The position numbers and the translations under genes are program-made. Shown piece by piece: positions 2,657 to 43,239 of a stretch of DNA of 56,483 nt. The notes under the pieces were generated by a model. It was not told the origin of the DNA. It saw only the letters and a program-made list of their open reading frames with translations, and ran no database searches. Position 1 is the first letter of the stretch. Each line of letters opens with the position of its first letter. Origin of the DNA: a virus (Duplodnaviria > Caudoviricetes); IMG/VR virus record IMGVR_UViG_3300047388_000152, positions 1 through 56,483 of that record. One strand, 5' to 3'.

Positions 2657-3381
2657 AGTCCTATTCCCATCTCATCGAACCACTTCGGAGTTTCGCCTTT
2701 CACTTCAAAGCGTGTCTGAAACTTAATCGACTTGCGGTAGTTATCGCCCGGAGGGAGATATTGGAGATTGTTCGGAACGTGCAAGCCTGAAACCATCTTG
2801 CCGTGCAAGGGGATGATGTGGTCAACCGTCATCCCCTCTGGGCAATCTCGATAGGTTTGGCGTATCTTTGTGAGGTCTGACCAAGGGGGAATACGTTGTT
2901 TCTTCGCGGCTTCACGCTTGCGTTGAATGTGCAGATTGTAGGCTTTGGTATTCGCCTCTCCGTGAATCGTGTGGCAATTTCGCTGTACTTCACGAGCCAA
3001 GCATCCACAGGAACGTGTCGCAACTTTACCAGTGAGATTGCCGCGTACCACGTAGACAGTGTTGCCGCAGTCACACAAGCACTCCCATTCAGTGCCTTGT
3101 CCGTGGCCATTTACCTGTCCGCGTAGTTTGTGAATCTTAATGGCAATCAGACGGCCAAATCGCTTGCCACCTAAATCGTTTTTGAGCAACGTGGTAGCAA
3201 TCATCTCTTTGGTCTTACATCCACAAGAACGAGAACGTCCATCCGCTATGCAAATAGCAGTCACGTGACGTTCAGTCCCACACTTACAGCGACATAGGGC
3301 TTTATGCTTATTAGATATGGGCGTTTCCAATACAGTCCAGTCGCCAAAAGTCTGCCCTTGCTGTATAACGGGATATTTCAT
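2653..3381 (-). CDS. HNH homing endonuclease
   Basis: CxCxCG...SCGC repeats; VDHIIPL..VSGLHVPNNLQ; antisense to the operon, with its own TGnTATAAT -10 near 3402-3410. Confidence 0.9.
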   Translation of the reverse strand: MKYPVIQQGQTFGDWTVLETPISNKHKALCRCKCGTERHVTAICIADGRSRSCGCKTKEMIATTLLKNDLGGKRFGRLIAIKIHKLRGQVNGHGQGTEWECLCDCGNTVYVVRGNLTGKVATRSCGCLAREVQRNCHTIHGEANTKAYNLHIQRKREAAKKQRIPPWSDLTKIRQTYRDCPEGMTVDHIIPLHGKMVSGLHVPNNLQYLPPGDNYRKSIKFQTRFEVKGETPKWFDEMGIGL

Positions 3382-5345: not shown

Positions 5346-5615
5346 ATGATGACTGACTACCTAAAGGGGCAGAGGAAGTGGCTGCGTAAGACTGGAGTCA
5401 CAGTAGGAAGTCCCGTGATGGTGATTGCAGAGCCTACGGGAACAATCGAGGATGAATCGTGGGGGTTGCCACTGGAGTATGTAGGGAAGGCGACGACTGT
5501 CAAACAGATAGACTCTGACCGTATCCGTATCAATCATCCTACGAGTGAGAGTCCCCTAGTTTGGTGGGGGGCTCCTTTCTACTGTCTAGTACCTGTAGAG
5601 GGGTCAAGATACTGA
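5346..5615 (+). CDS. Small protein, paralogue family A (SH3-like?)
   Basis: YLKGQxKW...YVGK...PFYCL, shared with 6237 and 6563. Confidence 0.75.
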   Translation: MMTDYLKGQRKWLRKTGVTVGSPVMVIAEPTGTIEDESWGLPLEYVGKATTVKQIDSDRIRINHPTSESPLVWWGAPFYCLVPVEGSRY

Positions 5616-5628
5616 CAAGATGTCAGCG
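5602..5628 (+). repeat. Bipartite motif copy 2 (1-nt insertion)
   Basis: GGTCAAGATA-CTGACA-AGA-TGTCAG-CG. Confidence 0.8.
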
Positions 5629-5633
5629 AAACC

Positions 5634-5930
5634 GTGAAAAACATACAGTCTGGATGGTGTAAGGGTGATGCTCTAGTCGCACGTGCTCAAGGTTGGGAAT
5701 TACGGGTAGACCACGAAGGACGCCTTTGGGCTGATGACGTATCCAGAGGCATTAGATTTAATGGAAAGGCATTCCAAACCGTCCTAGAGACTGCAATGAC
5801 AGGGGATGCAGCAGCCTACAAAGCTTTGCGTTGGCTGGCAAAGAACAATCCGTCCTACAGGAAGTGGAAAAAGACTGTACGGGCTATCTATAAGCAATTC
5901 CATCGTGTCAAAAGCACAGAAAGGACATAA
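5634..5930 (+). CDS. Small protein, paralogue family B
   Basis: SxWC...AMTG...KAL..LA...Y..W..TV..Y, shared with 5935. Confidence 0.7.
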   Translation: MKNIQSGWCKGDALVARAQGWELRVDHEGRLWADDVSRGIRFNGKAFQTVLETAMTGDAAAYKALRWLAKNNPSYRKWKKTVRAIYKQFHRVKSTERT

Positions 5931-5934
5931 TTTG

Positions 5935-6240
5935 ATGGCTACACGACACTTCAGGTCTAAATGGTGTTCCCTTGGTGCGTTCTTGTGTCGAGACCCTTCA
6001 CATTGGAAGTGGGAGGAAGTACGAGATAGAAACGGGAACGTGACGCCGTTAGTGTGGGATTGGCAAGAACATTGTGTGGCTCTAGCCCATCGGCAGACAA
6101 TGGATTCGTTGGTCGACCAGGCTATGACGGGCAATGTTCAGTACCTAAAGGCTCTGGGCGTACTAGCTTGGCAAAGAGAGGACTATAAAGAGTGGAGGCC
6201 GACAGTTTTGAGCCTCTATAGGTCGGTGATGGAGAAATGA
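5935..6240 (+). CDS. Small protein, paralogue family B
   Basis: Same motif as 5634; start placed at ATG 5935. Confidence 0.7.
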   Translation: MATRHFRSKWCSLGAFLCRDPSHWKWEEVRDRNGNVTPLVWDWQEHCVALAHRQTMDSLVDQAMTGNVQYLKALGVLAWQREDYKEWRPTVLSLYRSVMEK

Positions 6241-6560
6241 AAGACGACTACGTAAAACAGCAATCTAAGTGGTTGGAAAATACCGGATTGCAGGTTGGTG
6301 ATAAGTGCATTGTCGCGTTTTCACCGTCTTCTTTTGAGGAAGGCGAGAATTGGCACGGGTGGACGTGTGGGTGGGCTGAAGAGATGAACGATTGCGTAGG
6401 GAAGGTGGGGGTGATTCAAGCTATCGGGACGGCATACTATCACGCTGAGACGCCATTAAAGAACGGCATAGGGCTTGTGGTTCCGGGTGATGGACATCCT
6501 CAAGACGCTAAGGCGTGGTTCTATCCTTTCTTTTGTTTAATTCCTGCTGGAGATGAATAA
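6237..6560 (+). CDS. Small protein, paralogue family A
   Basis: YVKQQSKW...CVGKVG...PFFCL. Confidence 0.75.
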   Translation: MKDDYVKQQSKWLENTGLQVGDKCIVAFSPSSFEEGENWHGWTCGWAEEMNDCVGKVGVIQAIGTAYYHAETPLKNGIGLVVPGDGHPQDAKAWFYPFFCLIPAGDE

Positions 6561-6562
6561 CT

Positions 6563-6838
6563 ATGACAAACGAAGACAAGGCAACGAAACTTTATCTTAA
6601 GGGCCAGACCAAGTGGTGCAAGAACGCCAACATTGAGGTTGGAACAAAGGTCACCATCTTACAGGCCGCTGAATCGAATCAAGCAGGATGGCCGTCTCCC
6701 TTTCCTGAGTTTATGTTAAATTACGTGGGTAAAACAGGCACAGTGGTATGGCCAGATGACGTTGGTGGGGTGATGGTGGAGATGGAGGACGGGATTACTG
6801 TCCACTTTCCCTTCTTTATTTTATGCAAGGCTGAGTGA
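6563..6838 (+). CDS. Small protein, paralogue family A
   Basis: YLKGQTKW...YVGKTG...PFFIL. Confidence 0.75.
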   Translation: MTNEDKATKLYLKGQTKWCKNANIEVGTKVTILQAAESNQAGWPSPFPEFMLNYVGKTGTVVWPDDVGGVMVEMEDGITVHFPFFILCKAE

Positions 6839-7053: not shown

Positions 7054-7779
7054 TCAGATTGTAATGTCGCGGTACGTTTTATAATGACGAATGTCAAACA
7101 AGGTAGAAAGCGACACTTTGAAATGTTGTGCTAATTCTCGATACGTTAAATGCGAGTGCCGTATATGCCAGACATCTTCTTTAGTTAATACACGGTACTG
7201 GGGACGATGTTCATGAATGCGACTGGCAATATGTTCTTTGGAGTGTTTTGAACCGCGATTTGCTTCTGCCGCCGCAAGAATCGCCGCAGTCGGGATGTGG
7301 CCCAGTCTGGCAATTCGTGACTTCTCGACCACGGCAGGATGCTGTTTTCTACCAGTTAAGGCTTTACGTATTTTCTCAATGGCCTGCGGGGTCAGTTTAC
7401 GCCCCTTTCTCGCTCTAGACATTTTTTGTCGAGTGAGCATGGTGGGCTTCCACCCTAAACAGCCCTCTCCTCCTAAGGTGGCATTCGTAAGCGGTGCTCC
7501 AATAGAACGGTAATACGCAATCCAATTCGGCTCCGCGTCGATATAACCGCGAGCGTCACAACCGCTCTCTAAAATTACCATCAGCGGACGATGTCCCGTT
7601 CGGAGTAAACCCTGAATCCAATGCGCTTTATAGCTACGAACTCTCAAGGCTCCATTACAATGATCGTTTAACCGCTTATAAGGATTACCACTCCATCCGA
7701 TATACCGCACCCGCTTGGTCATCGGGTCAAGTAACGCATAGATATGCCATTTATATTGCATATCTCTAGTATAACTCAT
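7054..7779 (-). CDS. GIY-YIG homing endonuclease with NUMOD3-like repeats and C-terminal HTH
   Basis: HIYAL..RYIG..RL..H, E..WI, LTN.T.GGEG. Confidence 0.85.
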   Translation of the reverse strand: MSYTRDMQYKWHIYALLDPMTKRVRYIGWSGNPYKRLNDHCNGALRVRSYKAHWIQGLLRTGHRPLMVILESGCDARGYIDAEPNWIAYYRSIGAPLTNATLGGEGCLGWKPTMLTRQKMSRARKGRKLTPQAIEKIRKALTGRKQHPAVVEKSRIARLGHIPTAAILAAAEANRGSKHSKEHIASRIHEHRPQYRVLTKEDVWHIRHSHLTYRELAQHFKVSLSTLFDIRHYKTYRDITI

Positions 7780-8218: not shown

Positions 8219-8384
8219 AGAAAGCCTTTATTGGCCTCCGAAAGCCGAACAGTTGGGTGTGGCGTCGAGAACATATACGCCACTACAGGCAGTCCGACAG
8301 TTTTGAATGAGATTGTGGCGTTTCACCACGATTCCCCTCCCAAGGATTATGAGCTTCAAGCGTGGCAAATCAGACCAATCGAAG

Positions 8385-8594
8385 ATGAAAAACCCTAAAA
8401 TCCGACTCACTGGCAGGTCAAAGAGCGGGAAGTATCACGGGTATTGGGTGGTATCAGACGGTGCAGAACATCCAAGCTCTCAAGGCTATTCCCGATGGGT
8501 TTTGAATCAATGGATGGAATGGGCGCACTATATGGCCTCAGGTGATATTTCAGGTGATATTGAGGCGAACTACGAAATCCGTCCTGTTGATTAG
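8385..8594 (+). CDS. Small protein, family C
   Basis: GRSKSGKYHGYW...VLNQW...YEIRP. Confidence 0.7.
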   Translation: MKNPKIRLTGRSKSGKYHGYWVVSDGAEHPSSQGYSRWVLNQWMEWAHYMASGDISGDIEANYEIRPVD

Positions 8595-8595
8595 G

Positions 8596-8621
8596 GGTCA
8601 AGCACTGACATCGTGACAGTG
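8596..8621 (+). repeat. Bipartite motif copy 3
   Basis: GGTCAAGCA-CTGACA-TCG-TGACAG-TG. Confidence 0.85.
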
Positions 8622-8625
8622 AATT

Positions 8626-8862
8626 ATGATTCTCTAAGGCCGAAGCCCAAGCGGTAGATATAAGGTTTACTGGCGGTCTGTTTGGGAAACGAAGACTTTG
8701 GGATATGAGCAGTGGAAAGTAACGAATGTAGCGTTCACTCTGAACGGAGCTATACAAGCCACGATAGACCACCGGGCAATGTGTCCCGAAGACCCTCAGT
8801 ATGTAATACCTGCTGAGTTAGAACAAGACTTTCTGAGTGGGAAGATACAGGTGAAAGAATAG
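8626..8862 (+). pseudogene. Family C ORF with a nonsense codon at codon 4 (MIL*GRSPSGRYKVYW...TLNGAI...)
   Basis: TAA at 8635-8637; otherwise open to TAG 8860-8862. Confidence 0.7.
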
Positions 8863-8899
8863 ACTTGTCCGCAGGGGAGCACCGTGTATCATACTTAGT

Positions 8900-9379
8900 A
8901 TGAAAGAAGTGCCCCTCACAAAAGGACAGGTAATGTTTGTAGACGATGCGGATTATGCTCTCGCAACGACACGACGATGGTGTGCCGTGTGGGACGAACA
9001 TTCCCAGTCCTACCGAGCCAAAGGTAATATAAAGACATCTGGGGGATATAAACAGGTCACTTTCCATCGTTGGTTATTAAATGCCCCGCCAGAGTCACAA
9101 GTTGACCATCGAGACGGCAATCCCCTCAACAATCAACGCGAGAATTTGCGGCTTGCCACGCACGGACAGAATCAACAAAACAAGAAACGTCAACGTAATA
9201 ACCTGTCAGGTTTCAAGGGTGTGTGTTACGTTACCGCCAAGCGCAAATACAAGGCGTATATCTCCAAAGATGGAAAGCGTTACAACTTGGGCTATTTTGG
9301 CACCGCTCAAGAGGCGGCAGATGCTTACGCTGAAATGGCAAAGGAACTTCATCAGGAGTTTGCCTGCCTTGACCGCTAA
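8900..9379 (+). CDS. HNH-AP2 homing endonuclease
   Basis: VDHRDGNPLNNQRENLR plus AP2 SGFKGV...LGYFGTAQEAA. Confidence 0.92.
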   Translation: MKEVPLTKGQVMFVDDADYALATTRRWCAVWDEHSQSYRAKGNIKTSGGYKQVTFHRWLLNAPPESQVDHRDGNPLNNQRENLRLATHGQNQQNKKRQRNNLSGFKGVCYVTAKRKYKAYISKDGKRYNLGYFGTAQEAADAYAEMAKELHQEFACLDR

Positions 9380-9440
9380 CGTTCGGCCACTGAATTAGAA
9401 CCAATTCGGCTTGGCTAGTTCGTCGGAGTATTGTGTCTAA

Positions 9441-9656
9441 ATGAAGTTCTCTATTCAAGGACGGTCTCAAGACAACAGATATTGTGTCTGGTATAAACGG
9501 CCTCGAATCGAGTGGAAGAAATATTATTCATTTGACAGTCGGACACTAAATGAGGCCGTTGACGAAGCAACACAATGTTGGCGTGCTTGGTGGGAAGGAA
9601 ATCTAAACAACACCTACGCATTAGCAGTAGTTTCAGAAAATGAAGCACCGGATTAG
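9441..9656 (+). CDS. Small protein, family C
   Basis: GRSQDNRYCVW...TLNEAV. Confidence 0.7.
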   Translation: MKFSIQGRSQDNRYCVWYKRPRIEWKKYYSFDSRTLNEAVDEATQCWRAWWEGNLNNTYALAVVSENEAPD

Positions 9657-15127: not shown

Positions 15128-15328
15128 ATGATACGAGCAATTCCAACGTGGGTACTGACGAATATCAGTACGCCGTTCCTACCCAAGACGCATCCGTGGA
15201 AAGGTCGGTGGTTCACGTTATCAGACTGGGCTATACATCAAACATCGCTCTGTAAAGAGTTTGATTATGTATTTTGGTGTAGTGCTCTATGTGGTTGTGT
15301 TTTCTTGTATTTAATAACTCGCGGTTAA
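15128..15328 (+). CDS. Hypothetical membrane protein
   Basis: Hydrophobic C-terminus. Confidence 0.45.
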   Translation: MIRAIPTWVLTNISTPFLPKTHPWKGRWFTLSDWAIHQTSLCKEFDYVFWCSALCGCVFLYLITRG

Positions 15329-15433
15329 AGTGACTTATGAACCACGTAACAAGAGGATGTCTGGTGATGCTGGCGTTAGCCTTTGGGTTCTTACTCGTCC
15401 TAGTGGTGATGATGCTGATTCTGGCTAAGAACT

Positions 15434-15459
15434 AGTCAAGCACTGCCATCGTGTCAGCG
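15434..15459 (+). repeat. Bipartite motif copy 4
   Basis: AGTCAAGCA-CTGCCA-TCG-TGTCAG-CG directly before ATG 15460 of a 42-aa ORF. Confidence 0.8.
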
Positions 15460-15597
15460 ATGCTCAATACTGCCGTTGAACGTCTCTTAGAACGCGACAT
15501 CGACCTTCCTTTACGCCAAAAGGTGATGAAGGTTCTGATAGAGGTGCGAGAGTTTGAGTCGCCGTCCATTAGTCTTGGGAAGAGATAGAGGAGAGGA

Positions 15598-16257
15598 ATG
15601 AAAATACTAAGCGGAATTAGACCATCGGGACGATTACATCTGGGGAATTTCATCGGTTCAATACTCCCCGCGATGAAATATGACGCGGAAGTATTGATAG
15701 CTGAGTATCATTCCATCGACGGAGATGCGGAGGATTTGATAGCTCAACTGTCCCCATTCTTTCCTGCATCGCGTATTAAGCGTCAATCTGAGCATTTCAA
15801 CGCTAAACTCTATTTCAATCTACTGAGCTTGTCTCCTGATGGTTTGCTACGACATATGCCTCAGTATAAGAGTCAGGGAAAAACTGCCGATATGTTCGTC
15901 TACCCAGTGTTGATGGCTCACGATTTAGTGGGCTATGACAGGGTGATTGTCGGTGAAGACCAGAGGCCTCATATCGAGTTTGCACGAGATATTTTGCATA
16001 AAATCAACGAAGTGTGTCCTGAACCTATTTACGAGGGCGGAAAGGTGATGGACTTGCGAGACCCGACTCGAAAAATGAGTAAGTCTCTGCCGGAAAGTTG
16101 TTTCTTTCTAGGCGATGAACCAAACAAGATTATGAAAGCAGTGACAACTCCCGCAGGGCGAAAGAACCTTGAATTTATTGCAGATGCTCTCAACGTGGAG
16201 TATCCCTACGGAGATAATAAATCTCTCAAAGAGGCAATCATCGAGAAGCTGCCGTAA
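15598..16257 (+). CDS. trpS: Minimal tryptophanyl-tRNA synthetase-like protein
   Basis: SGIRPSG, HLGN (HIGH), YPVLMAHD, GEDQ, KMSKS; only 219 aa. Confidence 0.85.
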   Translation: MKILSGIRPSGRLHLGNFIGSILPAMKYDAEVLIAEYHSIDGDAEDLIAQLSPFFPASRIKRQSEHFNAKLYFNLLSLSPDGLLRHMPQYKSQGKTADMFVYPVLMAHDLVGYDRVIVGEDQRPHIEFARDILHKINEVCPEPIYEGGKVMDLRDPTRKMSKSLPESCFFLGDEPNKIMKAVTTPAGRKNLEFIADALNVEYPYGDNKSLKEAIIEKLP

Positions 16258-16276
16258 ATATTTCAAAAGATAGGGG

Positions 16277-16305
16277 TTGACTTTTCCGTTGAGGGTGGCG
16301 AGAAT
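16277..16305 (+). promoter_or_regulatory. Promoter-like TTGACT-17-GAGAAT
   Basis: Precedes RNA copy 3. Confidence 0.55.
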
Positions 16306-16311
16306 AGTAAC

Positions 16312-16446
16312 TGGCACGAACAGAATGGCTTTCTAGAGCATCACAATTTTAGTAAAAGTCCATAGAACCGAAAGGTGTCTATGGCAGAGACCGAGACCTT
16401 TAGGAGCCGTTCGTGCCGAATTGCTTTTCTTGGTCTCTTTTTTTTT
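16312..16446 (+). ncRNA. Putative structured RNA, copy 3 of 3
   Basis: GGCACGAA..TGGCTTTCTAGAG pairs with CTTTAGGAGCCG-TTCGTGCC; CCATAGAACC-GAAA-GGTGTCTATGG hairpin; AGAGACCGAGA pairs with TCTTGGTCTCT, followed by a T-run. Confidence 0.75.
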
Positions 16447-16460
16447 GTCTCTAAACCCCG

Positions 16461-16808
16461 ATGGCGACTCTTCAATTCAATCCCGAAGACTGGCTTACGC
16501 CCAACTCTTACGGCGACAACTATGCCGAACTGCCGCACGGGGCGGGAATATACATACTGGTTAGGGCTACTTGGCGTCCTGTGCCTAAGTTCCAAGTGCT
16601 CTATGTAGGAATGTCTACCAATATAGCCCAACGCCTAAAGGGGCACGAAATTAAAAAGCTGTGTGACGACTGTAATGGGGCTACTGATTATGTGCAGACC
16701 TATTTTCGGGCGTACCCTAAAGATGTTCTAAGACGTAGAGAACGCCGCCTCATTAAGGCGTGGAATCCCCCTTACAATTTACAACACAGAGAACGAGGGG
16801 AAGGATGA
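16461..16808 (+). CDS. Small GIY-YIG nuclease
   Basis: GIYIL...LYVGMS...RL..H...E..LI..P.YN. Confidence 0.85.
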   Translation: MATLQFNPEDWLTPNSYGDNYAELPHGAGIYILVRATWRPVPKFQVLYVGMSTNIAQRLKGHEIKKLCDDCNGATDYVQTYFRAYPKDVLRRRERRLIKAWNPPYNLQHRERGEG

Positions 16809-17650
16809 GTAAACTCCCCGCATTCCAATTCTATCCTGCCGATTGGCGAAAAGACCCTAGTGTTCAAGCTCTGGACTACCACGATAGAGGGGTGTGGTTT
16901 GAGATGTTATGCCTAATGCACGAGTCCGAACAGCGGGGTAAATTACTTCTTAATGGACTGAAGATGCCCGAAAATGTGCTTGCTAGGCTTTTAGGCTTGG
17001 ATAAGCAAATTCTAACCACCACGTTAACCACGTTGTTAACCTATGGCGTGGTTAAGGTCGAAAAAGAGACGGGCGTTCTCTACTCTAAACGTATGGTTTC
17101 AGACGAGTTACTGAGACAGATACGGTCAGAAGCGGGTAAGTTAGGGGGCAACCCGATGCTTAAGCAAAAACCAACCCCTTCATCTACTTCTTCTTCTTCG
17201 TCTCCTAGTTCTTTATCTCCTAACGGAGATACACCGACAGAACGACCCAATCAAGAAACAACGTCTACAGAGGGGATGCCTAATAACCTTTCTGTGGAGA
17301 TTGCTGGTGTTGTAAACGGTCAACCTAAAGACCCCTTACCTGCCCCCGACGAACGCTCTAAACATCCCGCAATAGTGGCCGTGCGGCAGATAACGAAAAA
17401 GTTTCCCAACAAAGACCTCTGGGACAGGATTATCAAACGCTTTGGTGAGAGTCCTGATGTGAGCCGTCTTCAGGAATGTTGGCTTGAATGGTTGGAGTGT
17501 GGATACAACAAAACATCAACAAAATGGTTGAACTGGTACTTCGACGGCATTCCCACTCGCAACGGAAATGGCAAAATCGTCATAACTCAGTCCACCAACC
17601 GCAAGACCGCTCGTGACTATCACGCAGAGATAGATGCTGAACTGAGATGA
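16805..17650 (+). CDS. Phage replication initiator/replisome organiser
   Basis: PAFQFYPADW N-terminus, RMV...AGK.GGNP, Ser-rich linker; directly upstream of DnaB. Confidence 0.8.
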   Translation: MSKLPAFQFYPADWRKDPSVQALDYHDRGVWFEMLCLMHESEQRGKLLLNGLKMPENVLARLLGLDKQILTTTLTTLLTYGVVKVEKETGVLYSKRMVSDELLRQIRSEAGKLGGNPMLKQKPTPSSTSSSSSPSSLSPNGDTPTERPNQETTSTEGMPNNLSVEIAGVVNGQPKDPLPAPDERSKHPAIVAVRQITKKFPNKDLWDRIIKRFGESPDVSRLQECWLEWLECGYNKTSTKWLNWYFDGIPTRNGNGKIVITQSTNRKTARDYHAEIDAELR

Positions 17651-19971
17651 TTCCAAACAACGTAGACCTTGAGAAACTGATGATTGGCGTTGCCCTGTTG
17701 GAACGTCGATTAACCTACGACCTCAAGCAGTTGTCTACTGTGGATTTTTACAATGCTCGTTTTTCTCGCGTTTGGGGTGTGATTGTTGAACTAGACGAGG
17801 AGAATGAACCCCTAGACATCGGCGTTATTCACCAACGGGTCAAAATTGAGGACTTTAGGCTTACAGAACTGTCTCAGTTGACCATTGGCGTTGCGTCTCT
17901 AACGACTCTGGGGAAAGAGGTGAAAATCCTCAAGAACCTCACAGCCCTTAGAACTCTACAGCGTGGATTCTCCGAGATAGGCGACAGGATTGAACACAAG
18001 GCCGACATAGATTCTATTGTTCTGGATGCCGAGAACCTACTGGAAACCGTCAAAGCAGACAGGAACGTGGTTGTGGGCACTTCAAAACCTGTAGCTCAAG
18101 TGTTTGAGCAAGACGTGTTTCCTCGCATCGACAAGTACGTGTCAGGAGAACTCGTCAAACTTCCCTTTGGGTTCGATTTATTGGATAGGTCAACTAATGG
18201 CGGTGTGGCTTTGGGTGAGCTTGTAATCTTTGGTGCCAAGCCCAAGGCGGGGAAGGCTCTAGCATTAGACACGCCCATTCCGACACCGCACGGGTGGACG
18301 ATAATGGAAGCTCTCAATGTAGGCGATGAGGTTTTCGATGAAAACGGACACATTTGCCGTGTCGTAGCCGCCACGGAGACGATGCACGATAGAGAATGTT
18401 ATCGAATATGGTTTGATGACGGCACCGACATCGTAGCAGACGCTGACCACCAATGGCTTACTCGCACTCAGAAAGCCCGTCGAAGTGAAACCCAGCTCCG
18501 TAATCGGAAAAAGCACGTTCCACAGCCCGACCCGCGTTTTTCTCGTGACAAGTCTGACCAACGGGAATTTGCTTCTATCAAGACAACGCGAGACATAGCG
18601 GAGACTGTTTACGACCCTAAAGATGGACGAGTAAATCACTACGTCCCCGTCTGCAAGCCCATCGACCTGCCAAAGAAAAACCTACCACTCGACCCTTACC
18701 TGTTGGGTGTATGGCTAGGTGACGGTAAAACGACCGATAGCCGTATCTACTCAGCGGACATCGAAGTGGTCAACGAGATTGAGCGGGCGGGTTATGAAAT
18801 ACGCAAAACTCGCACGGGCAAGTATGAGTATCGGGTTTATAAAATAAACCCTATTCTACGCCAAATAGGGGTCTTGGGTCGTAAACATATTCCTCAGCAA
18901 TATCTTAGGTCTTCCAAAAAACAGCGGATAGCCTTACTTCAGGGTTTAATGGACACGGACGGCCACTGTGACACGCGGCGAGGTAATGGAGAATTTACAA
19001 CAACGTCTGCTACGTTGATGACCCATTTCTTAGAGTTGACCGCATCGTTAGGGCTTAGGACTAAGATGTGTGTTGGCAATGCCACGCTGAACGGTAGAGT
19101 TATTAGCCGTAAGTGGAGAGTCACGTTTCACAGTCCGTTCCCAATGTTCCGTTTGTCCCGCAAGTTAGCAGTGCAAAAACGGTCAGGGTTTAAGTGTATT
19201 GATTTTCGAGGCATACGAGGTGTGGAACCGATAGAGAGCGTTCCTGTGCGATGTATTCAGGTGGATTCGCCGTCAAGTCTTTTCTTGGCAGGGAAACACT
19301 TTATTCCTACGCATAACAGTGCTCTGATGCTCCAGATAGCCCGACAGCAGGCAGAACAGGGTATTGAGTGCTATATCTGTTCTCGTGAAATGCTGAATTA
19401 CGAGAACGGCCTGAGACTTATCACGCAGACATCTCCTTACACAGCAAACCATATGCGACCTAATCTCTACCGTGAGACAGGAGAACGCATCAAGGAACAC
19501 GCCAGAGGGATGAAGTTGTCCTTACACTTCGATGACAAAGCTAAGTCGGTCAAAGATGTACGTAAGGAACTGACTCGACTTGAGGACAACGGCATAGACG
19601 TGATGTCAGTGTTCGTGGACTATGTGCAGTTGATGAAAGGGAAAGACACCAACAACCGTGCGGATATGCTTGAGGACATCATCTACGACCTGAAAGATTT
19701 AGCTCTGGAGCGAGAGATAGCCGTCTTTTGCAACGCTCAGTTCAATCGAGAGGGCATAGATGCCCTACGACCTAAGATGAGTGATTTCAAAGGCTCTAGT
19801 GCGATTGAAATGGCAGGAAACCTTATTCTGTTCTGGACTCTAGAACAAGAGATGAATCCAGATACTAAAGCTAGGCACGGTAAGTTTTGGATAGAGGCTG
19901 GGCGTAACGTGGCCTTTGATGAGTTCTCCATTAGGTTCTATGGTGAAAAAGCTCACTTTGAATTAGAGTAG
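17647..19971 (+). CDS. dnaB: Replicative DnaB-like helicase containing an intein
   Basis: Spliced Walker A GAKPKAGK|S, SREM, VDYVQL, AQFNR, KGSSAIE. Confidence 0.92.
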   Translation: MIPNNVDLEKLMIGVALLERRLTYDLKQLSTVDFYNARFSRVWGVIVELDEENEPLDIGVIHQRVKIEDFRLTELSQLTIGVASLTTLGKEVKILKNLTALRTLQRGFSEIGDRIEHKADIDSIVLDAENLLETVKADRNVVVGTSKPVAQVFEQDVFPRIDKYVSGELVKLPFGFDLLDRSTNGGVALGELVIFGAKPKAGKALALDTPIPTPHGWTIMEALNVGDEVFDENGHICRVVAATETMHDRECYRIWFDDGTDIVADADHQWLTRTQKARRSETQLRNRKKHVPQPDPRFSRDKSDQREFASIKTTRDIAETVYDPKDGRVNHYVPVCKPIDLPKKNLPLDPYLLGVWLGDGKTTDSRIYSADIEVVNEIERAGYEIRKTRTGKYEYRVYKINPILRQIGVLGRKHIPQQYLRSSKKQRIALLQGLMDTDGHCDTRRGNGEFTTTSATLMTHFLELTASLGLRTKMCVGNATLNGRVISRKWRVTFHSPFPMFRLSRKLAVQKRSGFKCIDFRGIRGVEPIESVPVRCIQVDSPSSLFLAGKHFIPTHNSALMLQIARQQAEQGIECYICSREMLNYENGLRLITQTSPYTANHMRPNLYRETGERIKEHARGMKLSLHFDDKAKSVKDVRKELTRLEDNGIDVMSVFVDYVQLMKGKDTNNRADMLEDIIYDLKDLALEREIAVFCNAQFNREGIDALRPKMSDFKGSSAIEMAGNLILFWTLEQEMNPDTKARHGKFWIEAGRNVAFDEFSIRFYGEKAHFELE
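18256..19317 (+). mobile_element. Class 3 intein with LAGLIDADG endonuclease (354 aa)
   Basis: Starts ALALDTP, ends PTHN|S; W (DHQW), C (VRCIQV), T (PTHN) signature; LGVWLGDG and LQGLMDTDG. Confidence 0.9.
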
Positions 19972-20053
19972 TGCGGTATACTGGAGACGAGGCGTTTGAG
20001 TGAGTCACCACTCATAGCCTCTGACCACATTTCAACAATAGAGGTGTTCAAAT

Positions 20054-20572
20054 ATGGCTACTGCCAGTATACGCAATCATCCCTTAAGGGGAAAACATTG
20101 TCCCGTTAATGAATCCCGTCCTGACTGTCTGGTTAATTTCTGGGCACGAGTTGCCATCAGTGGTGAAGATGAGTGTTGGGAATGGCAAGGCGCTCGTCAG
20201 TCCCAGAATTACGGGAATTTAAGGTTCAACGGGCGACCCCACAAAGCTCACCGTGTAGCGTTCTACCTGACCTACGGGCATTGGCCTATTCCTAAGTGCT
20301 TGCATTCCTGTGACAACCCGCCGTGCGTCAATCCGGCCCACTTATCCGAGGGCACTCAGTTGGATAATGTACGACAGGCGAAAGAGCGCGGTAGACTGCG
20401 ACCCGTTCGTGGCGAGAATGCGGTTCGCACTTCTCTTAAGAACGCTGACATCCAGAAAATACGTCAACGATTAGGGGCGGGTGAAGCCCCTCTTAGCATT
20501 GCGAAGGCATTTGGAGTCGAACGTCCTGTGATTTATCAAATCAAGTGTGGTAAAAACTGGGCGTCGGTTTGA
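20054..20572 (+). CDS. HNH (His-Cys box-like) homing endonuclease with HTH
   Basis: ECWEWQG..YG..AHRVA..HSCDNPPCVNPAHL..GT..DN. Confidence 0.9.
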   Translation: MATASIRNHPLRGKHCPVNESRPDCLVNFWARVAISGEDECWEWQGARQSQNYGNLRFNGRPHKAHRVAFYLTYGHWPIPKCLHSCDNPPCVNPAHLSEGTQLDNVRQAKERGRLRPVRGENAVRTSLKNADIQKIRQRLGAGEAPLSIAKAFGVERPVIYQIKCGKNWASV

Positions 20573-20624
20573 TGCGTTCGACTTGATGTTCTACGGCGAG
20601 AAAGCGACGTTTGAATTGCAGTAG
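20568..20624 (+). pseudogene. Orphaned alternative 3' end of dnaB (FDAFDLMFYGEKATFELQ*)
   Basis: 12/18 aa identical to FDEFSIRFYGEKAHFELE* at 19915-19971. Confidence 0.9.
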
Positions 20625-20721
20625 GAGAGCAAATGTCTACTAAAAGTACCATTTTGTATGATGGCAAAGGGCTTCATTTTTATGGGAGTAATATACTTGC
20701 CTCAGTAGAGGAGGTGGGTAT

Positions 20722-21807
20722 ATGCTAGGTGCGTGCAGCACGCGGTTGGCTGCGTACCTGACGCGTGAATCTCATTTTAGACCAAACGCTGTAATTGGCT
20801 TTACCTCTATGGAACTCGAACCCCTCGACGGTTATGTCGATGCGAGCGGTAATCAAAACACCGTCGATGACAAAGTGTTGACGGTGAACGGGGTCTTAAG
20901 TACGCCGGAACTTTGGAATGAATTTGACCGAGAGTGGCAGGAATTTTTGAAAGGTAAATGTTGGCGGGCGAATGAGAATGGTAAGTACGTCTTTCACGCG
21001 ACCGATTTTTGGGCTGATGATTGCGACTATGCGCCCAAAGGTCTTTCAACCACTTTCAAAAAGATTATTTATGGACACCTTCTAACGCTCATTAAAAGGT
21101 ACAGTCTGTGGCGTTTTGGAATGGCCGTTCTACTCGATGATCTGCGTAATTTTGAGAAGGAAGTGCCGCACGCTCGGGAGTTTGTTCTTAGTAAAGCCGG
21201 AACTATGCTTAGTAAGCTTTGTTTTGATGTGAACTCCGATTGGGCTGCGCGAACTAACAAATATGATCCTTCGATAACATATGTGTTTGAGTCCGGGGAT
21301 GAGTGGTTTGGTGAGTTGGAAACCCAATTTAATACGGTTCGCAAACAATACCGAGGACGAGAACGGGAATTGACGGTATACGCCTTGGATGATCGGCCTA
21401 AAGACGACTATTCGCCCTTACAGGCGGCCGATATTATTGCTTGGGAATGTCGGCAATACTTTTTAAAGGGAGCAAAAGACCGAGACGCATTGCTTGCGGG
21501 CAAGATAAAACCGCGCCCTGAGCTGAGCTTTCTCCACGTCGAAGGTGAGAGCAGTTTTGCTATCTTTGACGAGCATCACATTGAGAGCCACTTTCAACGG
21601 CTAGTTGCGGATCGGCTAGAGGGAGCCAATATTGATCCGAATGTTCGTCTAATTGGCGATGGGAATCCGTTTACGGATCTTGGTCAGTTAGGGCGCCATA
21701 TTGTCGATGAAGTGAAAAAGTTAGAGGTGGCAGACGTGAAAGCGAGACAGGCAGAAGCTCGGGCTAGGTATGAAGCAACAAAAAGTGACAAAAAAGATGC
21801 AAGATAA
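20722..21807 (+). CDS. IS passenger: DUF3800-like (RNase H-fold) protein
   Basis: YVDASG...FHATD...PLQAADIIAW. Confidence 0.75.
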   Translation: MLGACSTRLAAYLTRESHFRPNAVIGFTSMELEPLDGYVDASGNQNTVDDKVLTVNGVLSTPELWNEFDREWQEFLKGKCWRANENGKYVFHATDFWADDCDYAPKGLSTTFKKIIYGHLLTLIKRYSLWRFGMAVLLDDLRNFEKEVPHAREFVLSKAGTMLSKLCFDVNSDWAARTNKYDPSITYVFESGDEWFGELETQFNTVRKQYRGRERELTVYALDDRPKDDYSPLQAADIIAWECRQYFLKGAKDRDALLAGKIKPRPELSFLHVEGESSFAIFDEHHIESHFQRLVADRLEGANIDPNVRLIGDGNPFTDLGQLGRHIVDEVKKLEVADVKARQAEARARYEATKSDKKDAR

Positions 21808-21973: not shown

Positions 21974-22933
21974 TTAGTGGCCTTCTAATGAATAGCCGAT
22001 TAGCGATGCATAGGTGAGACGTTTGCCGCTAATCGACTCAAGCAGACGAACGAAGCGAATCTGGTCGTTAGTCTCGCGTTCGTTATATCTGAACATTTGC
22101 TCCTCGACGTACTTTTGAAGATGTGCAGGCGATACGGAAATGTAAGTGCCCTTGATGGTTCGCTTGAGAAGCGACCAGAAGTTCTCAATCGAGTTCGTAT
22201 GCACATTGCCACGAACGTACTCGTGAGCGTGATTGATAACTTCGTGACGGTACTCCTCGACCATCTGGTAAATCTTGCGGTAGCCGCCAGCGTCGTCGGT
22301 CATAACAACCGAACCCGCTTCGATGTTTTCAGCGATAGCGGTCTGGCAAGTCTCAGTGTCCGCAATCTTGATAACCCTAGCCCGAACCTTGCCGCCACGC
22401 TGAACCATACCCATAACGCCAGTCTTGACGGTATAGCCGCGAGTCATATTAAGTTCCTTGCGTTTCTTGGCGTGCATATTCCGCGACTTGCCGCCGATGT
22501 AGGTTTCGTCCATCTCGACCGTACCGGAAAGCTTCTCGATGGTTCCGAGCGTCATAGCGGTGCGGATGCGGTGAAGCACGAACCACGCGCTTTTCTGAGT
22601 GATGCCAAGCGCACGGTGAAGCTCGTAGCTGGAGATACCGTTCTTTGCATTCACGATCAGCCACATAGCGAGGAGCCACTTTTCGAGGGCGATAGCCGAA
22701 TCCTCAAAGATGGTTCCGACCTTAACGCTGAATTGCTTTTTGCACTCTTTGTTCTTGCACTGCCAGACCTTACGAGCGGCCATAAAGTGGTTGTTCTTTT
22801 CACCGCACTTTGGGCATACGGCTTGACCGTCAGACCATCGCATCGCGGCGATAAGGTCGATACAGAATTGCTCGTCAGCAAAGGCTTTCGCGGCATCTTG
22901 GAGCGTCTTTGGCAGTGGCGTTTCGTTAACCAT
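21974..22933 (-). CDS. IS1595-family DDE transposase
   Basis: Zinc ribbon CPKC..C..C, EMDETYIGG, MTDD, HTNSIENFWSLLKR. Confidence 0.95.
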   Translation of the reverse strand: MVNETPLPKTLQDAAKAFADEQFCIDLIAAMRWSDGQAVCPKCGEKNNHFMAARKVWQCKNKECKKQFSVKVGTIFEDSAIALEKWLLAMWLIVNAKNGISSYELHRALGITQKSAWFVLHRIRTAMTLGTIEKLSGTVEMDETYIGGKSRNMHAKKRKELNMTRGYTVKTGVMGMVQRGGKVRARVIKIADTETCQTAIAENIEAGSVVMTDDAGGYRKIYQMVEEYRHEVINHAHEYVRGNVHTNSIENFWSLLKRTIKGTYISVSPAHLQKYVEEQMFRYNERETNDQIRFVRLLESISGKRLTYASLIGYSLEGH

Positions 22934-23626: not shown

Positions 23627-23808
23627 AAAGGTCGGACACCAATCAGTATCACCTCTGGGGATACAACACGTCGACTGGTCAGCATCTTTTGATGAATTGG
23701 ATGGGGCTTCTGTGTCTAAACACCGCCGTGATGCATTCAATTCAAGGTAACGACTACGCAAAACAGAACGAGATGGATGAGCTTTTCTATGTCCAAGCCG
23801 CAGATTGA
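23614..23808 (+). CDS. Small protein, family C
   Basis: KRSDTNQYHLW...CLNTAV. Confidence 0.65.
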   Translation: MARLKRSDTNQYHLWGYNTSTGQHLLMNWMGLLCLNTAVMHSIQGNDYAKQNEMDELFYVQAAD

Positions 23809-24007
23809 GTTCTTAGGCAGAAGTCCCGTGGGGCAATACGAGATAGCATGGTTAGGTGACAGGAATAATTGGTTCTGGTATATGCCTCAGAGCCTTAATG
23901 AGGTGGTCTCTGTTTACACTACACGAATAATCCAAGATGGATGGGATAACACAAGATGGAGAGTACGCCCAGCGCTCTACGGGCCGGCAGTTGAACCGCT
24001 TTTTTGA
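23789..24007 (+). CDS. Small protein, family C
   Basis: GRSPVGQYEIAW...SLNEVV...WRVRP. Confidence 0.7.
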   Translation: MSKPQIEFLGRSPVGQYEIAWLGDRNNWFWYMPQSLNEVVSVYTTRIIQDGWDNTRWRVRPALYGPAVEPLF

Positions 24008-24215
24008 GAGGTCAGAGGCGAATCTCTATCACGTTAAATGGTTTAGGAATGGACAGTGGAGAGTCCTGTACTCGTATGGGGAACTATCGTTGAATAAAGC
24101 ACAAGATATTTGTGTTAATCGTAACGCACACATTCCTATGAGCACTCTTGTTATGGTGAAAAATGACAAGACCCTTAAATATGACGTTGAACCTGCATCT
24201 CCAATCCCGTTCTAA
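23937..24215 (+). CDS. Small protein, family C (start uncertain)
   Basis: ERSEANLYHVKW...SLNKA. Confidence 0.65.
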   Translation: MDGITQDGEYAQRSTGRQLNRFFERSEANLYHVKWFRNGQWRVLYSYGELSLNKAQDICVNRNAHIPMSTLVMVKNDKTLKYDVEPASPIPF

Positions 24216-24630
24216 AACAAACAAGTATCGAATTAAGTATCGAGAGGTGGGTAAGAAATGGTCAAAGACGGGTTTTGCTTCAACCCTTAATGAAGCCGTT
24301 GAGACGGCTCATATCACGCAATATCCCGTCACGCGTAAGAATTACATTCTCACGGGACTTGGGAATGCGACCATCACGGTTGATTACGCTACGGGTACAA
24401 CGGGTTTTCTTGTCCCTAAGATGGAGTTCAGGATAGTTCCTTGGAGACCTGACTTTTACTACCTCCGATGGGCACTTTGCTATATACAAATAGCAACGAT
24501 GTTGTTCAGCGTGGTAGTAGGCACTTGGCTTGCTATTGACGGAGAATGGCTGTCTGTATTGAATTTCGGGTCTGCGGCTGTGAATCTGATAGTACTGATG
24601 TGGCTATGGAAAAATCTCCCAAGAAAATAG
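24163..24630 (+). CDS. Family C domain fused to two transmembrane helices
   Basis: SRSKTNKYRIKY...TLNEAV...FRIVP plus hydrophobic tail. Confidence 0.65.
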   Translation: MTRPLNMTLNLHLQSRSKTNKYRIKYREVGKKWSKTGFASTLNEAVETAHITQYPVTRKNYILTGLGNATITVDYATGTTGFLVPKMEFRIVPWRPDFYYLRWALCYIQIATMLFSVVVGTWLAIDGEWLSVLNFGSAAVNLIVLMWLWKNLPRK

Positions 24631-24812
24631 AGAGGTCTCCGAGCGGTCGCTATGTCCTTGAATACTACTGTTCGGAACAGTGGCGTGCAGTGCTTCGCAT
24701 ATTTCCACTAAACATCGCTGTTGAAGAGTCCCTGAAAAGAAATGCAGACAAAAAGTCTTGGTGGCAACACAGGGTCGCGTCTTTTGAGATTTCACAATCC
24801 ACAGATAGTTGA
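24606..24812 (+). CDS. Small protein, family C
   Basis: ERSPSGRYVLEY...PLNIAV. Confidence 0.7.
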   Translation: MEKSPKKIERSPSGRYVLEYYCSEQWRAVLRIFPLNIAVEESLKRNADKKSWWQHRVASFEISQSTDS

Positions 24813-25221
24813 GTCGGTGTTGAGGGACGCTGTTCAAGGTAAGTTTTTGCACCACAACAGACCAGAATCAGAACAAAGACCAGCTAGAACGGTAGAAGAA
24901 GCCCTAGAGAGACTTAAGAGATTAGTTCCTGAGTACAAGTCCTATATTCGAGACGAGAGGCTAAAAGATGTGTACGAGGACTATTCTCAATTAGAGGCTT
25001 TCCTTGCTTCAACTTCGTCGGAAGGCTACTTAGCCACCTCTGACCACATCCGAGAGCTTCTACGTGCCTCCAAGCGTCAGGAATCAACACAAATATCAGA
25101 CCTCTGTACTGAGGCACAGTGGAACTTAATCCTTCGATTGGGCGGAACGGAACCTAGGCCGACAAAGTTGATGGCTGGAAGAATCATAGCTTTTCTGAAA
25201 AAGAAAAATGGAAAAACCTAA
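24742..25221 (+). CDS. Hypothetical protein
   Basis: C-terminal TEAQ..LI..LGG...A.II..L motif; start uncertain. Confidence 0.55.
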   Translation: MQTKSLGGNTGSRLLRFHNPQIVESVLRDAVQGKFLHHNRPESEQRPARTVEEALERLKRLVPEYKSYIRDERLKDVYEDYSQLEAFLASTSSEGYLATSDHIRELLRASKRQESTQISDLCTEAQWNLILRLGGTEPRPTKLMAGRIIAFLKKKNGKT

Positions 25222-25907: not shown

Positions 25908-26096
25908 ATGACTTGTCAAAAGAAGGACTTCTTTTCCCGAAGTGCCGCCCAAAGATTCAAAAAGAACACACATCGGAAGTACGGGGATAAGCAGTCGTCT
26001 GTATATCAATGTCCGTCTTGTTCGACTCCCGACAAAGCGGTGTGGCATTTGACCTCAATGCCTCGTGGCAAGCGACAGTACATACGGAGAGATTAA
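25908..26096 (+). CDS. Small zinc-binding protein
   Basis: C.K..F.S...A...YQCPSC...WHLTS. Confidence 0.7.
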   Translation: MTCQKKDFFSRSAAQRFKKNTHRKYGDKQSSVYQCPSCSTPDKAVWHLTSMPRGKRQYIRRD

Positions 26097-26866
26097 TGAA
26101 CCACGAAGAAGAACGGCAAAAGATTGTCGATAGCGTTCTCAATCTCAATAAGTCTATCGCTAACTCTCTTGACCCAGAGACTCACGTGGCTCCAATCCGC
26201 TACCAGCCTTGGATAGAGTACTACTTAGAGAACAAATGCACTCTTGAAAAAGTAGGACAACAGTTCGGTGTATCCAGAGAGCGTGTAAGACAAATACTCA
26301 AGAAGTATGGTGTTAATCAACGTTGGTTGTGGTCTAGCAGGAATAACCCTCATCCGCCTAAGATGACGCCAGAGTTGTACACGGCGCGTTCTAAGGCAAG
26401 ATTGTGGTCAAGGATAGATATAACGACTGACCCTGAGGAATGCTGGAATTGGACTGGTTATGTCAATAACAAACTAGGCTATCCTGCTTACAATGTCAGA
26501 GCTTTGCATCTGCCGTGGACACCAAAGAAAGACAACACGACTCGCGTTCAACCTATCGTTTGGTGGTTAACCTACGATAAAGCACCTGAACATTGGATTG
26601 TGACCCTGTGCAAGAACCATCTCTGTTGCAACCCAAATCATCTGGCAGACCTCCCTGCTACTGAAATGACAAGGTTCCGAGGGCCGATGAAGAATCGAGT
26701 GGTAAAGACCCATTGCAAAAGAGGACATGAGTACACACCAGAGAATACGTATGTCTGGCACGGTAAGTACGATGTTCGATGTTGTAGAACCTGTAGTCGA
26801 ATTCGGGAGAATGCTAGAAATGCAAAGCTACGTTCAGCTTCAAAAGAACAGCAAAATTCATCTTGA
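26096..26866 (+). CDS. Sigma70 region-4 HTH fused to an HNH-like and zinc-finger domain
   Basis: TLEKVGQQFGVSRERVRQI; ECWNWTG; CKNHLCCNPNHL; KTHCKRGH..TPENTY. Confidence 0.75.
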   Translation: MNHEEERQKIVDSVLNLNKSIANSLDPETHVAPIRYQPWIEYYLENKCTLEKVGQQFGVSRERVRQILKKYGVNQRWLWSSRNNPHPPKMTPELYTARSKARLWSRIDITTDPEECWNWTGYVNNKLGYPAYNVRALHLPWTPKKDNTTRVQPIVWWLTYDKAPEHWIVTLCKNHLCCNPNHLADLPATEMTRFRGPMKNRVVKTHCKRGHEYTPENTYVWHGKYDVRCCRTCSRIRENARNAKLRSASKEQQNSS

Positions 26867-26975
26867 CAAGCAACGCCTTGGTTGCGAAACTGTCTATGGG
26901 TTAAGGGTGAGGACGGCTCGGCTTGGTCTCCATTTGAATAATGGAGAGTGTGAGAGTCCGTGAAATCATCTAACC
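26863..26975 (+). promoter_or_regulatory. Promoter TTGACA-17-GAAACT plus a long leader hairpin covering the GTG start
   Basis: Nested pairings GGTTA/TAACC, GGTGA/TCATC, GGAC/GTCC, TCTCCATT/AATGGAGA. Confidence 0.55.
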
Positions 26976-27496
26976 GCTTGCCAGACGGGTCTGACACCCG
27001 TAATCCCCCACGCAGAAAGAATCAGAACGAGCGCTGGGAATATCAGTGCCAACGTTGCCGTTTCTGGAAACCTTGGAAGGCTTTCAAAGAGTACAAGCGA
27101 CGGTTGAGATTTGAGAAATATATCGACCAATTCTGTAATGACTGCACAGCCTTTCTTGGTCGTCATAAAGACCGTCAACAATTCCGCCAACGGTCTCAAT
27201 CTTCCAGACGCCGAATGGCCTTTCAGCAACCACTGTCTGATGCCGCTCAGTTAGAGATTGACCATTTCTACCGCCTCGCTCAACGTAAGACAGAACAAAC
27301 GGGCATTAAGCACTCCGTTGACCACATAGTTCCTTTAATCCACGACAAAGTTTGCGGATTGCACGTACCTTGGAATATGCAAGTCCTCACCCTTGTGGAT
27401 AATATAGCCAAGAGCAACAATTTCCTCGTACATAAGGAGATGCCTGACGGGCGTATTGTGATTCTGGATGTAGATATTGCCTATTTATTGCGGTGA
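26960..27496 (+). CDS. HNH endonuclease
   Basis: [20 protein letters not shown]...N..K.N. Confidence 0.85.
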
Positions 27497-42546: not shown

Positions 42547-43239
42547 GTGTGGATGAGAAAGTACCCGTTGCTAACTGAATGCATACCCAAGCCTCCTCGC
42601 GTTCGGCAGATGGGAGGCTTGGTAATCAACTTGCTGACCGTCAAATGTTACGTTGGTTTCAGAAATAAATCTAGCCAATGGCTGTGTGAGTGTCTTTGCG
42701 GCACTCTCGTTAATCGCTCCACGGAGATATTGTCTAATGGTAAAGCCTTTAGCTGTGGTTGCCGTAAAAATACCCGACACCACACATTGCACCCTCTTTA
42801 CAATATTTGGAACAAGATGATTAGCCGTTGTGAAGTGGAGCACTCCACGGGATTTCATAAATATGGGGCTAGAGGTATTCGGGTATGCCACGGTTGGCAT
42901 GAGTTTGACTGTTTTACCGTTGATATGGGTGAACGGCCAGAAGGACGATATTCGATTGACCGTATTGATAACGATGGCAATTACTCGTGCGGACATTGTG
43001 ATGAATGCGTAGAAAAAGGCTGGCCCGCTAACTGTAAATGGTCGGATGATGTTCAACAGGCGAATAATAGACGGAATAGCAAGCGGATAACTATGGGTGA
43101 CGAAACTCATACCGTGCAACAATGGGCTACTCGTTTGGGTAAAGACTCTAACCGTATTTACCAACGATTGAGACTGGGATGGAAGCCCGAAGATGCCTTG
43201 ATGTTGCCGATAGATATTACGCATAAGTACAACAAATAA
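42547..43239 (+). CDS. HNH-like homing endonuclease
   Basis: W..M..RC...YGARGIRVC..W...SIDRIDNDGNY; promoter-like TTGACT..TATCAT upstream. Confidence 0.88.
   Translation: MWMRKYPLLTECIPKPPRVRQMGGLVINLLTVKCYVGFRNKSSQWLCECLCGTLVNRSTEILSNGKAFSCGCRKNTRHHTLHPLYNIWNKMISRCEVEHSTGFHKYGARGIRVCHGWHEFDCFTVDMGERPEGRYSIDRIDNDGNYSCGHCDECVEKGWPANCKWSDDVQQANNRRNSKRITMGDETHTVQQWATRLGKDSNRIYQRLRLGWKPEDALMLPIDITHKYNK

Follow-up and report, generated by a model that had tools for sequence, protein, structure and literature searches.

The DNA analysed here, referred to below as the window, is the whole of the IMG/VR virus record IMGVR_UViG_3300047388_000152 (Duplodnaviria; Caudoviricetes), which spans 56,483 bases at an estimated completeness of 48% and carries its replication genes on the plus strand and its structural genes on the minus strand. 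Within it, a gene for a dnaB-type replicative helicase is followed by a free-standing HNH endonuclease gene and then by a second copy of the last dnaB codons that has no gene body of its own. The features of this locus are listed below (ORF, open reading frame).

17647–19971, plus strand: dnaB-type replicative helicase gene, a complete ORF of 774 residues (Pfam DnaB_C, E = 8e-29; DnaB N-terminal domain, E = 1e-7)
19888–19914, plus strand: codons for WIEAGRNVA, the most conserved motif of the dnaB family, abutting the duplicated part
19915–19971, plus strand: resident (translated) dnaB tail, the last 18 codons, FDEFSIRFYGEKAHFELE and the stop
19972–20053, plus strand: spacer of 82 nt from the dnaB stop to the HNH start, with an AGAGGTG ribosome-binding site before the ATG
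20054–20572, plus strand: free-standing HNH_3 endonuclease gene, 172 residues, with an N-terminal His-Me finger domain and a predicted C-terminal helix-turn-helix
20568–20624, plus strand: putative displaced remnant of a dnaB tail, FDAFDLMFYGEKATFELQ and a stop, in another frame than the HNH gene and with no gene body
20624–20728, plus strand: GGAG ribosome-binding site and an ORF of 31 residues (ATG at 20633), the Shine-Dalgarno (SD) sequence fused to the remnant stop

The dnaB gene starts in an ATGA overlap with the gene before it (17647/17650), and its product ends in WIEAGRNVA, followed by FDEFSIRFYGEKAHFELE and the stop. The WIEAGRNVA motif was seen in nearly all tails of the dnaB family, with W, I and R invariant in the alignment. 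In the comparison with solved DnaB helicase structures the alignment reaches query residue 214 of 217, and the 18-residue tail lies inside the aligned region, so that a dnaB gene cut at 19914 would lose part of the fold. A replacement tail was probably needed to keep an invaded dnaB working.

The resident and the second tail agree in 12 of 18 residues, as the first-pass annotation, made from the sequence alone, had described, and in 42 of 57 bases; they lie 597 nt apart on the same strand and have their stops in register. The best unrelated match to the resident tail among the 112,854 six-frame 18-residue windows of the record reached 7 of 18. A tblastn comparison of 148 ORFs (those of at least 70 residues) with the window returned a 26-residue alignment between the two copies (IEAGRNVAFDEF.../VKTGRR--FDAF...) at a window-wide E of 0.007, and the local-alignment score of the tail was 69 on its own post-HNH region, whereas the corresponding regions at 79 other loci that carry relatives of the nuclease gave it no more than 30. 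When the same 148 ORFs were scanned for copies of their tails or heads within 3 kb on the same strand (E < 0.2), no tail copy besides that of dnaB was found. The tail duplication is thereby confirmed as real and as unique in the window.

Both ends of the second tail are joined tightly to their neighbours. The HNH gene closes with GTT TGA, and this final codon and stop share five nucleotides (TTTGA) with TTT GAT, the two codons that open the second tail. The stop of the second tail, TAG, is the start of the sequence TAGGAG and lies 8 nt upstream of the ATG at 20633 (TAGGAG-N5-ATG), in keeping with the earlier remark that this copy precedes the SD sequence of the next gene. The 31-residue ORF that begins there overlaps the start of an ORF of 361 residues (20722–21807). 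In the Pfam and PHROG searches the former had no family match and the latter matched DUF3800 only, below threshold; no relatives of the 361-residue ORF were retrieved in the viral-contig scan. The second copy had also been called start-less, which holds in so far as no dnaB body and no ribosome-binding site were seen; its frame opens at 20532, and a GTG at 20547, inside the HNH gene, gives a possible ORF of 25 residues.

An 8-nt block, CTGGGCGT, occurs both in the 3' end of the HNH gene (20557–20564, 3 nt before the remnant) and in dnaB (19898–19905, 9 nt before the resident tail). We considered it as junction microhomology and rejected it as within chance, since 122 of 5000 shuffles contained a match of at least 8 nt, as did 119 of ~5000 random windows and 2 of 79 control HNH gene ends (~2.5%). 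The segments of the locus are too short for their base composition to be informative. One soil-metagenome run, available as contigs only, contains this DNA and may be its source; it showed no joint that skips the cassette, which is evidence neither way. The sole public-run contig over dnaB and the HNH gene stops at 20618, inside the remnant, and 20624–21487 is uncovered; this contig end may reflect a branch in the assembly graph or a filter effect.

The product of the HNH gene was assigned to Pfam HNH_3 (PF13392; E = 7e-7, 29.2 bits at a cut-off of 24.8) and to PHROG endonuclease families (best E = 7e-29), and the viral-contig scan retrieved 79 distinct loci with relatives that share 32–44% identity with it along most of its length. 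When the window protein was aligned with 33 of these relatives (34 sequences), 16 columns were invariant, all of them by construction kept in the window protein, including H84, C86, D87, N88, C91, N93, H96 and N105, with the core H-x-CDN-x2-C-x-NP-x-HL. Members of the family usually end in W-x-x-V/I followed by the stop or by one or two residues, and the window protein ends W-A-S-V-stop, in register with them. Its C-terminus being in register and the invariant positions kept, the HNH gene is therefore full length, and the junction lies at its stop codon, within TTTGA.

An AlphaFold model of the protein (pLDDT, the predicted local distance difference test, 85.5) has a β-rich N-terminal domain and three C-terminal helices (130–164). 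In a wide structural search, in which Z scores below 8 were not taken as decisive, the model matched I-PpoI (Z 6.2) and I-HmuI (Z 6.0; root-mean-square deviation 6.2 over 122 aligned residues) weakly, and the C-terminal helices matched the helix-turn-helix domains of Tc3 transposase, resolvase and Hin at Z 5.4–6.3, likewise below the decisive level. These modelled fold matches agree with the Pfam HNH_3 assignment and are too low to stand by themselves. Foldseek returned no match to the model at E ≤ 0.001, the protein had no sequence match among PDB structures, and no Pfam DNA-binding family was matched. I-HmuI nicks one strand. The window protein, as modelled, would resemble this HNH homing endonuclease of the Bacillus phage SPO1 (PDB 1u3e; the fold match is weak) in joining an HNH_3 domain to a C-terminal DNA-binding module, and differs from it in that I-HmuI is intron-encoded and the gene here is free-standing.

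The first-pass annotation had proposed a splicing-free insertion, and this part of the proposal holds. A Rfam scan of 19600–20900 with E up to 1 gave no match, and so no sign of a group I or II intron; the ORFs of dnaB and of the HNH gene are each complete and distinct from one another, and the HNH gene lies outside any intron or intein. The promoter that had been assigned to the inserted cassette was not borne out, as a scan of 19700–20900 for sigma-70-type promoters gave 0 promoter-like sites, and the TATACT at 19977–19982 stands alone. A hairpin is predicted in the spacer at 19989–20021 (minimum free energy −27.3 kcal/mol), with a weak z of −1.78, 10 of 200 shuffles folding equally well.

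Apart from its 3' end, dnaB also contains an intein (18256–19317, residues 204–557, 354 residues) with a LAGLIDADG endonuclease domain (Pfam LAGLIDADG_3, E = 2e-5), which sits in the P-loop of DnaB (GAKPKAGK / ALALDTPI ... IPTHN / SALMLQ) and whose first residue is Ala, not Cys or Ser. Trp, Cys and Thr residues at the expected blocks suggest a class 3 intein, as in a mycobacteriophage DnaB. Among 73 relatives of dnaB, P0005 (774 residues) and P0053 (778 residues) are of a length that would accommodate an intein. Since dnaB carries both the intein and the HNH cassette, it holds two independent selfish elements.

Relatives of this dnaB are few and distant. The family was found at one locus in viral contigs (L002, 68% identical), at four loci in metagenome contigs (39–53%) and as a single match in species-representative genomes (L087, 47%), on a 76-kb contig of a metagenome-assembled genome labelled Aridibacter sp. 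(Acidobacteriota), which, together with the soil origin of the one sequencing run that contains the window, is a weak clue to the host group. A blastn search of a phage collection gave no close relative with an HNH-less dnaB, and the 73 homologues retrieved from a large protein collection, mostly of 420–425 residues, include none above 76% identity besides the window's own protein. The tails of the family follow a pattern like WIEAGRNVA-[YF]DEFD[IL]xFYGEKALFEL, which both window tails fit. In all five relatives compared at the DNA level (L002, L082, L083, L084 and L087; 43–68% identical), dnaB ends in one tail only and is not followed by an HNH gene, and the best downstream match to the relative's own tail scored 21–31, at background level. 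The cassette is thus absent from five of five relatives, and such sporadic presence is typical of homing endonuclease genes.

With respect to the neighbourhood of dnaB, a 319-residue zinc-ribbon protein (PHROG 25593, function unknown, E = 1e-43) is encoded downstream of the gene both in the window (21977–22933, minus strand) and in L002 (5133–6053, plus strand); the two proteins are 40% identical (E = 1e-70) and lie in opposite orientation relative to dnaB. The proteins encoded upstream of dnaB in the window and in L002 are unrelated (E = 1.4).

The reading that we favour, with moderate confidence, is that a free-standing gene for an HNH homing endonuclease entered dnaB at its 3' end through one-sided break repair, with neither an intron nor an intein to accompany it. 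A break or nick made by the nuclease in a dnaB allele that lacked the HNH gene would have come first, at the WIEAGRNVA codons or immediately behind them, in what we infer to be the candidate target or break region. On the left, homologous copying from an HNH-carrying donor would then have repaired the end and brought in the donor's tail of dnaB with its stop, followed by the spacer and the HNH gene; on the right, the end would have been reattached independently of homology at the HNH stop or beside it, the site of the 5-nt TTTGA overlap. The outcome would be a dnaB gene functional with a donor-supplied tail that may itself escape the nuclease, and the recipient's last 18 codons would now lie stranded downstream of the HNH gene, untranslated but continuous as before with the ribosome-binding site of the gene that follows. 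A precedent for such repair exists in phage T4, in which, according to the portion of PMC2988022 that covers it, homing with one-sided homology leads to illegitimate repair of the break and to junctions formed at microhomology.

The proposed direction of the event, with the remnant as the lineage's own tail, is argued from two properties of the locus. Where a gene end without a body lies 3' of an inserted gene, insertion into the gene it belongs to is the only way for it to have arisen, and the remnant keeps a compact, native-looking junction of stop and SD sequence, comparable to the ATGA overlap at the dnaB start, the resident tail instead preceding the hairpin spacer and then the HNH gene. 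That a cassette entered dnaB and displaced the ancestral tail, as had been proposed, is supported by an intact HNH gene located exactly between the working tail and the stranded copy and by the complete dnaB ORF; the assignment of the ancestral tail is one of parsimony and context, because the available relatives are too distant.

Several results weigh against this reading or against parts of it. The comparison with HNH-less dnaB alleles that had been suggested as a check, made with the five cassette-free relatives with DNA and 28 protein relatives, one tail each, gave no decision, since the single-tail relatives are about equally like both copies, the best values being 14 of 18 for the resident tail and 13 of 18 for the remnant, both against P0011. 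With the closest HNH-less relative at 76% protein identity at most, the direction of the event is not demonstrated. A sliding-window and maximum chi-square analysis of 75 pairs gave uncorrected P = 0.003–0.017 with the end of the resident DnaB nearer to the P0011/P0012 clade; for P0002 versus P0011, the split of the informative sites changes at the breakpoint from 28:7 to 0:6 (P = 0.003, uncorrected). We rejected this mosaic signal in the last 35–43 residues of DnaB (nearer to P0011 and P0012 than to P0002–P0004, the closest relatives overall), which fails correction, and the remnant is P0011-like too. Furthermore, a DnaB of this family was found within ~3 kb of the related HNH genes at 0 of the 79 loci, so that family kinship gives no support for dnaB as the target.

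The divergence between the two tails belongs with these points. Their 15 base differences fall 4, 4 and 7 at codon positions 1, 2 and 3, amounting to 5 synonymous and 6 non-synonymous codon changes, and a synonymous change is present in 5 of the 12 codons whose residue is conserved. The earlier mention of many synonymous changes is thus true, but the differences are not mainly synonymous. As a calibration pair we used the window dnaB and that of L002 (68% protein identity; tails 67%), which differ at 24% of first, 17% of second and 67% of third positions and show a synonymous change in 89 of 146 codons for identical residues. At positions 1 and 2 together, 8 of 38 sites differ between the window tails, as expected from this calibration (P = 0.53), but at third positions 7 of 19 differ, fewer than the expected fraction of 0.67 (P = 0.007). 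Because of this deficit, the tails do not look like two alleles that long evolved apart under constraint; the codon pattern suggests remnant decay or a very close donor as a better fit than two long-separated functional alleles, or else one of the copies may have evolved under relaxed or altered constraint. It also weakens the proposal that the resident tail was recoded for immunity to the nuclease, for which the pattern is not specific. Of the 26% base difference, a part is probably due to decay of the remnant after the event.

An explanation that takes up this deficit is that the tails were initially identical, because the donor was near-identical or because a tandem duplication was later entered by the HNH gene, and that the differences arose later, as the remnant decayed neutrally and the working copy underwent a few changes, with no recoding or immunity involved. 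The near-uniform spread of the differences over codon positions (4, 4, 7) and the third positions far from saturation (P = 0.007) speak for it. Residues not seen in the family point the same way, as two in the remnant (A3 and T14) and one in the resident tail (H14) occur in 0 of the 28 relatives, and so do the minority features common to both tails, namely F at position 1 (3 of 28) and L at position 17 (8 of 28). Yet the 15 changes in 57 nt have brought the remnant neither a stop nor an insertion or deletion, nor a change at any of the five positions that are at least 80% conserved in the 28 relatives, all of which the six differing residues avoid (P = 0.09); the HNH gene, moreover, has stayed intact, which speaks against a great age of the event. 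We regard an identical start as unlikely.

One may also suppose that the nuclease was uninvolved and that ordinary illegitimate recombination joined a module of dnaB and HNH gene to the tail and downstream genes of another phage, with a junction that falls in the dnaB tail by coincidence. The sequence by itself cannot separate this from nuclease-driven one-sided repair, and the flanks of dnaB do speak of mosaicism, given that they differ from those of L002 (the upstream protein unrelated, the downstream protein inverted). However, the junction lies both within 5 nt of the stop of an intact homing-type nuclease and directly behind the motif that is best conserved in an essential gene, and a random junction would rarely do both; we therefore hold ordinary recombination to be distinctly improbable. 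Least credible of all is chance similarity, or a remnant with no relation to dnaB that functions as a small gene or a regulatory element. The GTG at 20547 that could open a 25-residue ORF is the point in its favour, and we rejected it on the agreement of 12 of 18 residues against a chance maximum of 7, the tblastn E of 0.007, the alignment score of 69 against at most 30, and copies that end in register on the same strand.

The layout as such has known counterparts in fungal mitochondria, a parallel already drawn in the first-pass annotation and an apt one. As the part of PMC3630166 devoted to them describes, mobile ORFs replace a C-terminus in atp6 of Allomyces macrogynus, in atp6, atp9, cox2 and nad3 of Glomus sp., in atp9 of Rhizopus and in cox2 of Mortierella. 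In these cases, as in the arrangement proposed here, a host gene acquires an in-frame 3' end of foreign origin with an endonuclease ORF after it, and its native 3' end is duplicated downstream; the DNA identity of the tail copies is ~64–81% there and 74% in dnaB (same portion of PMC3630166). Our case differs in its host, a double-stranded DNA phage, and in its nuclease, which is of the HNH_3 type and not LAGLIDADG or GIY-YIG as in that account; there, the native status of the downstream copy was shown by close relatives (91–98% identical), whereas here the relatives reach at most 76%. On the favoured reading, the dnaB locus would be a new case of this known mitochondrial kind, in which a homing-endonuclease cassette replaced the end of an essential phage gene.

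Among phages, the nearest likeness is to the intronless homing of the T4 seg and mob genes, in which a free-standing nuclease gene is located between genes, beside a conserved essential gene, and occurs sporadically (PMC2988022, in the sections dealing with them). Those genes insert between genes or split them, and a duplicated, displaced gene end is not described in those sections. The insertions of mobE into nrdA of Aeh1 and of mobA into T4 gene 60 are likewise intronless and located in essential, replication-related coding regions; there the gene is split into two polypeptides that reassemble, whereas here dnaB would be kept whole by a spare tail (PMC2988022, same sections). In the open-access full-text literature we found no phage report of a stranded gene end in this layout, and the extracts of PMC2248197, PMC10448857 and PMC8351571 that bear on the subject hold no phage case of it.

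A further claim was that unrelated nuclease families had used the same strategy repeatedly in this one phage, and this was not supported, as the scan of the 148 ORFs described above gave no other tail copy. At 77 loci with related HNH genes tail duplication was found in none, the top own-locus score of 36 lying inside the cross-locus range (up to 53), in what was a crude test in which the upstream "genes" were raw stop-to-stop frames. The dnaB locus is a single case, with no other in the window or at the 77 loci, and it does not support a general mode. That phage homing endonuclease genes can in general invade essential coding sequences without splicing, by carrying a spare gene end that escapes the nuclease, a mode so far unlisted in phages that would parallel the mitochondrial mobile ORFs, is an unlikely proposition; if it were true, stranded gene ends would mark past invasions and map nuclease cut sites.

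The window is dense in nuclease-like genes, as the following list shows.

7057–7779, minus strand: GIY-YIG and NUMOD3 (Pfam)
8900–9376, plus strand: HNH_3 and AP2 (Pfam)
16461–16805, plus strand: GIY-YIG (Pfam)
26009–26863, plus strand: ORF like the dnaB-linked HNH gene (27% identity, E = 1e-5)
26960–27493, plus strand: ORF that resembles 2656–3381 (minus strand) in an HNH-like motif
42547–43236 and 45447–46166, both plus strand: paralogous ORFs (31% identity, E = 2e-34) on the strand opposite to the surrounding tail-fibre genes

The GIY-YIG gene at 16461–16805 comes directly after a 219-residue ORF (15598–16254) that matches the class I tRNA synthetases (W and Y) over Pfam profile positions 7–228 of 292 (E = 2e-25) and looks short; when all frames of 15300–16900 were read, no displaced tail was seen. 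Elsewhere in the window there is a family of small paralogous ORFs of unknown function (5346–5612, 6237–6557 and 6563–6835, in the region 5346–6838; E down to 2e-8), and short ORFs in 8300–9650 and 23700–24850, also of unknown function, share an RSPxGxY-like N-terminal motif.

If the favoured reading of the dnaB locus is true, the stranded tail is a fossil of the invasion that marks the break just after the WIEAGRNVA codons, and it would supply the sequence of the susceptible allele, which would make the target of an uncharacterised HNH nuclease directly testable. It would also matter for annotation, as short orphan gene ends are easily missed or miscalled. More broadly, the mitochondrial trick of bringing along a spare gene end would then operate in phages too, which bears on how selfish nucleases enter essential genes without introns or inteins.

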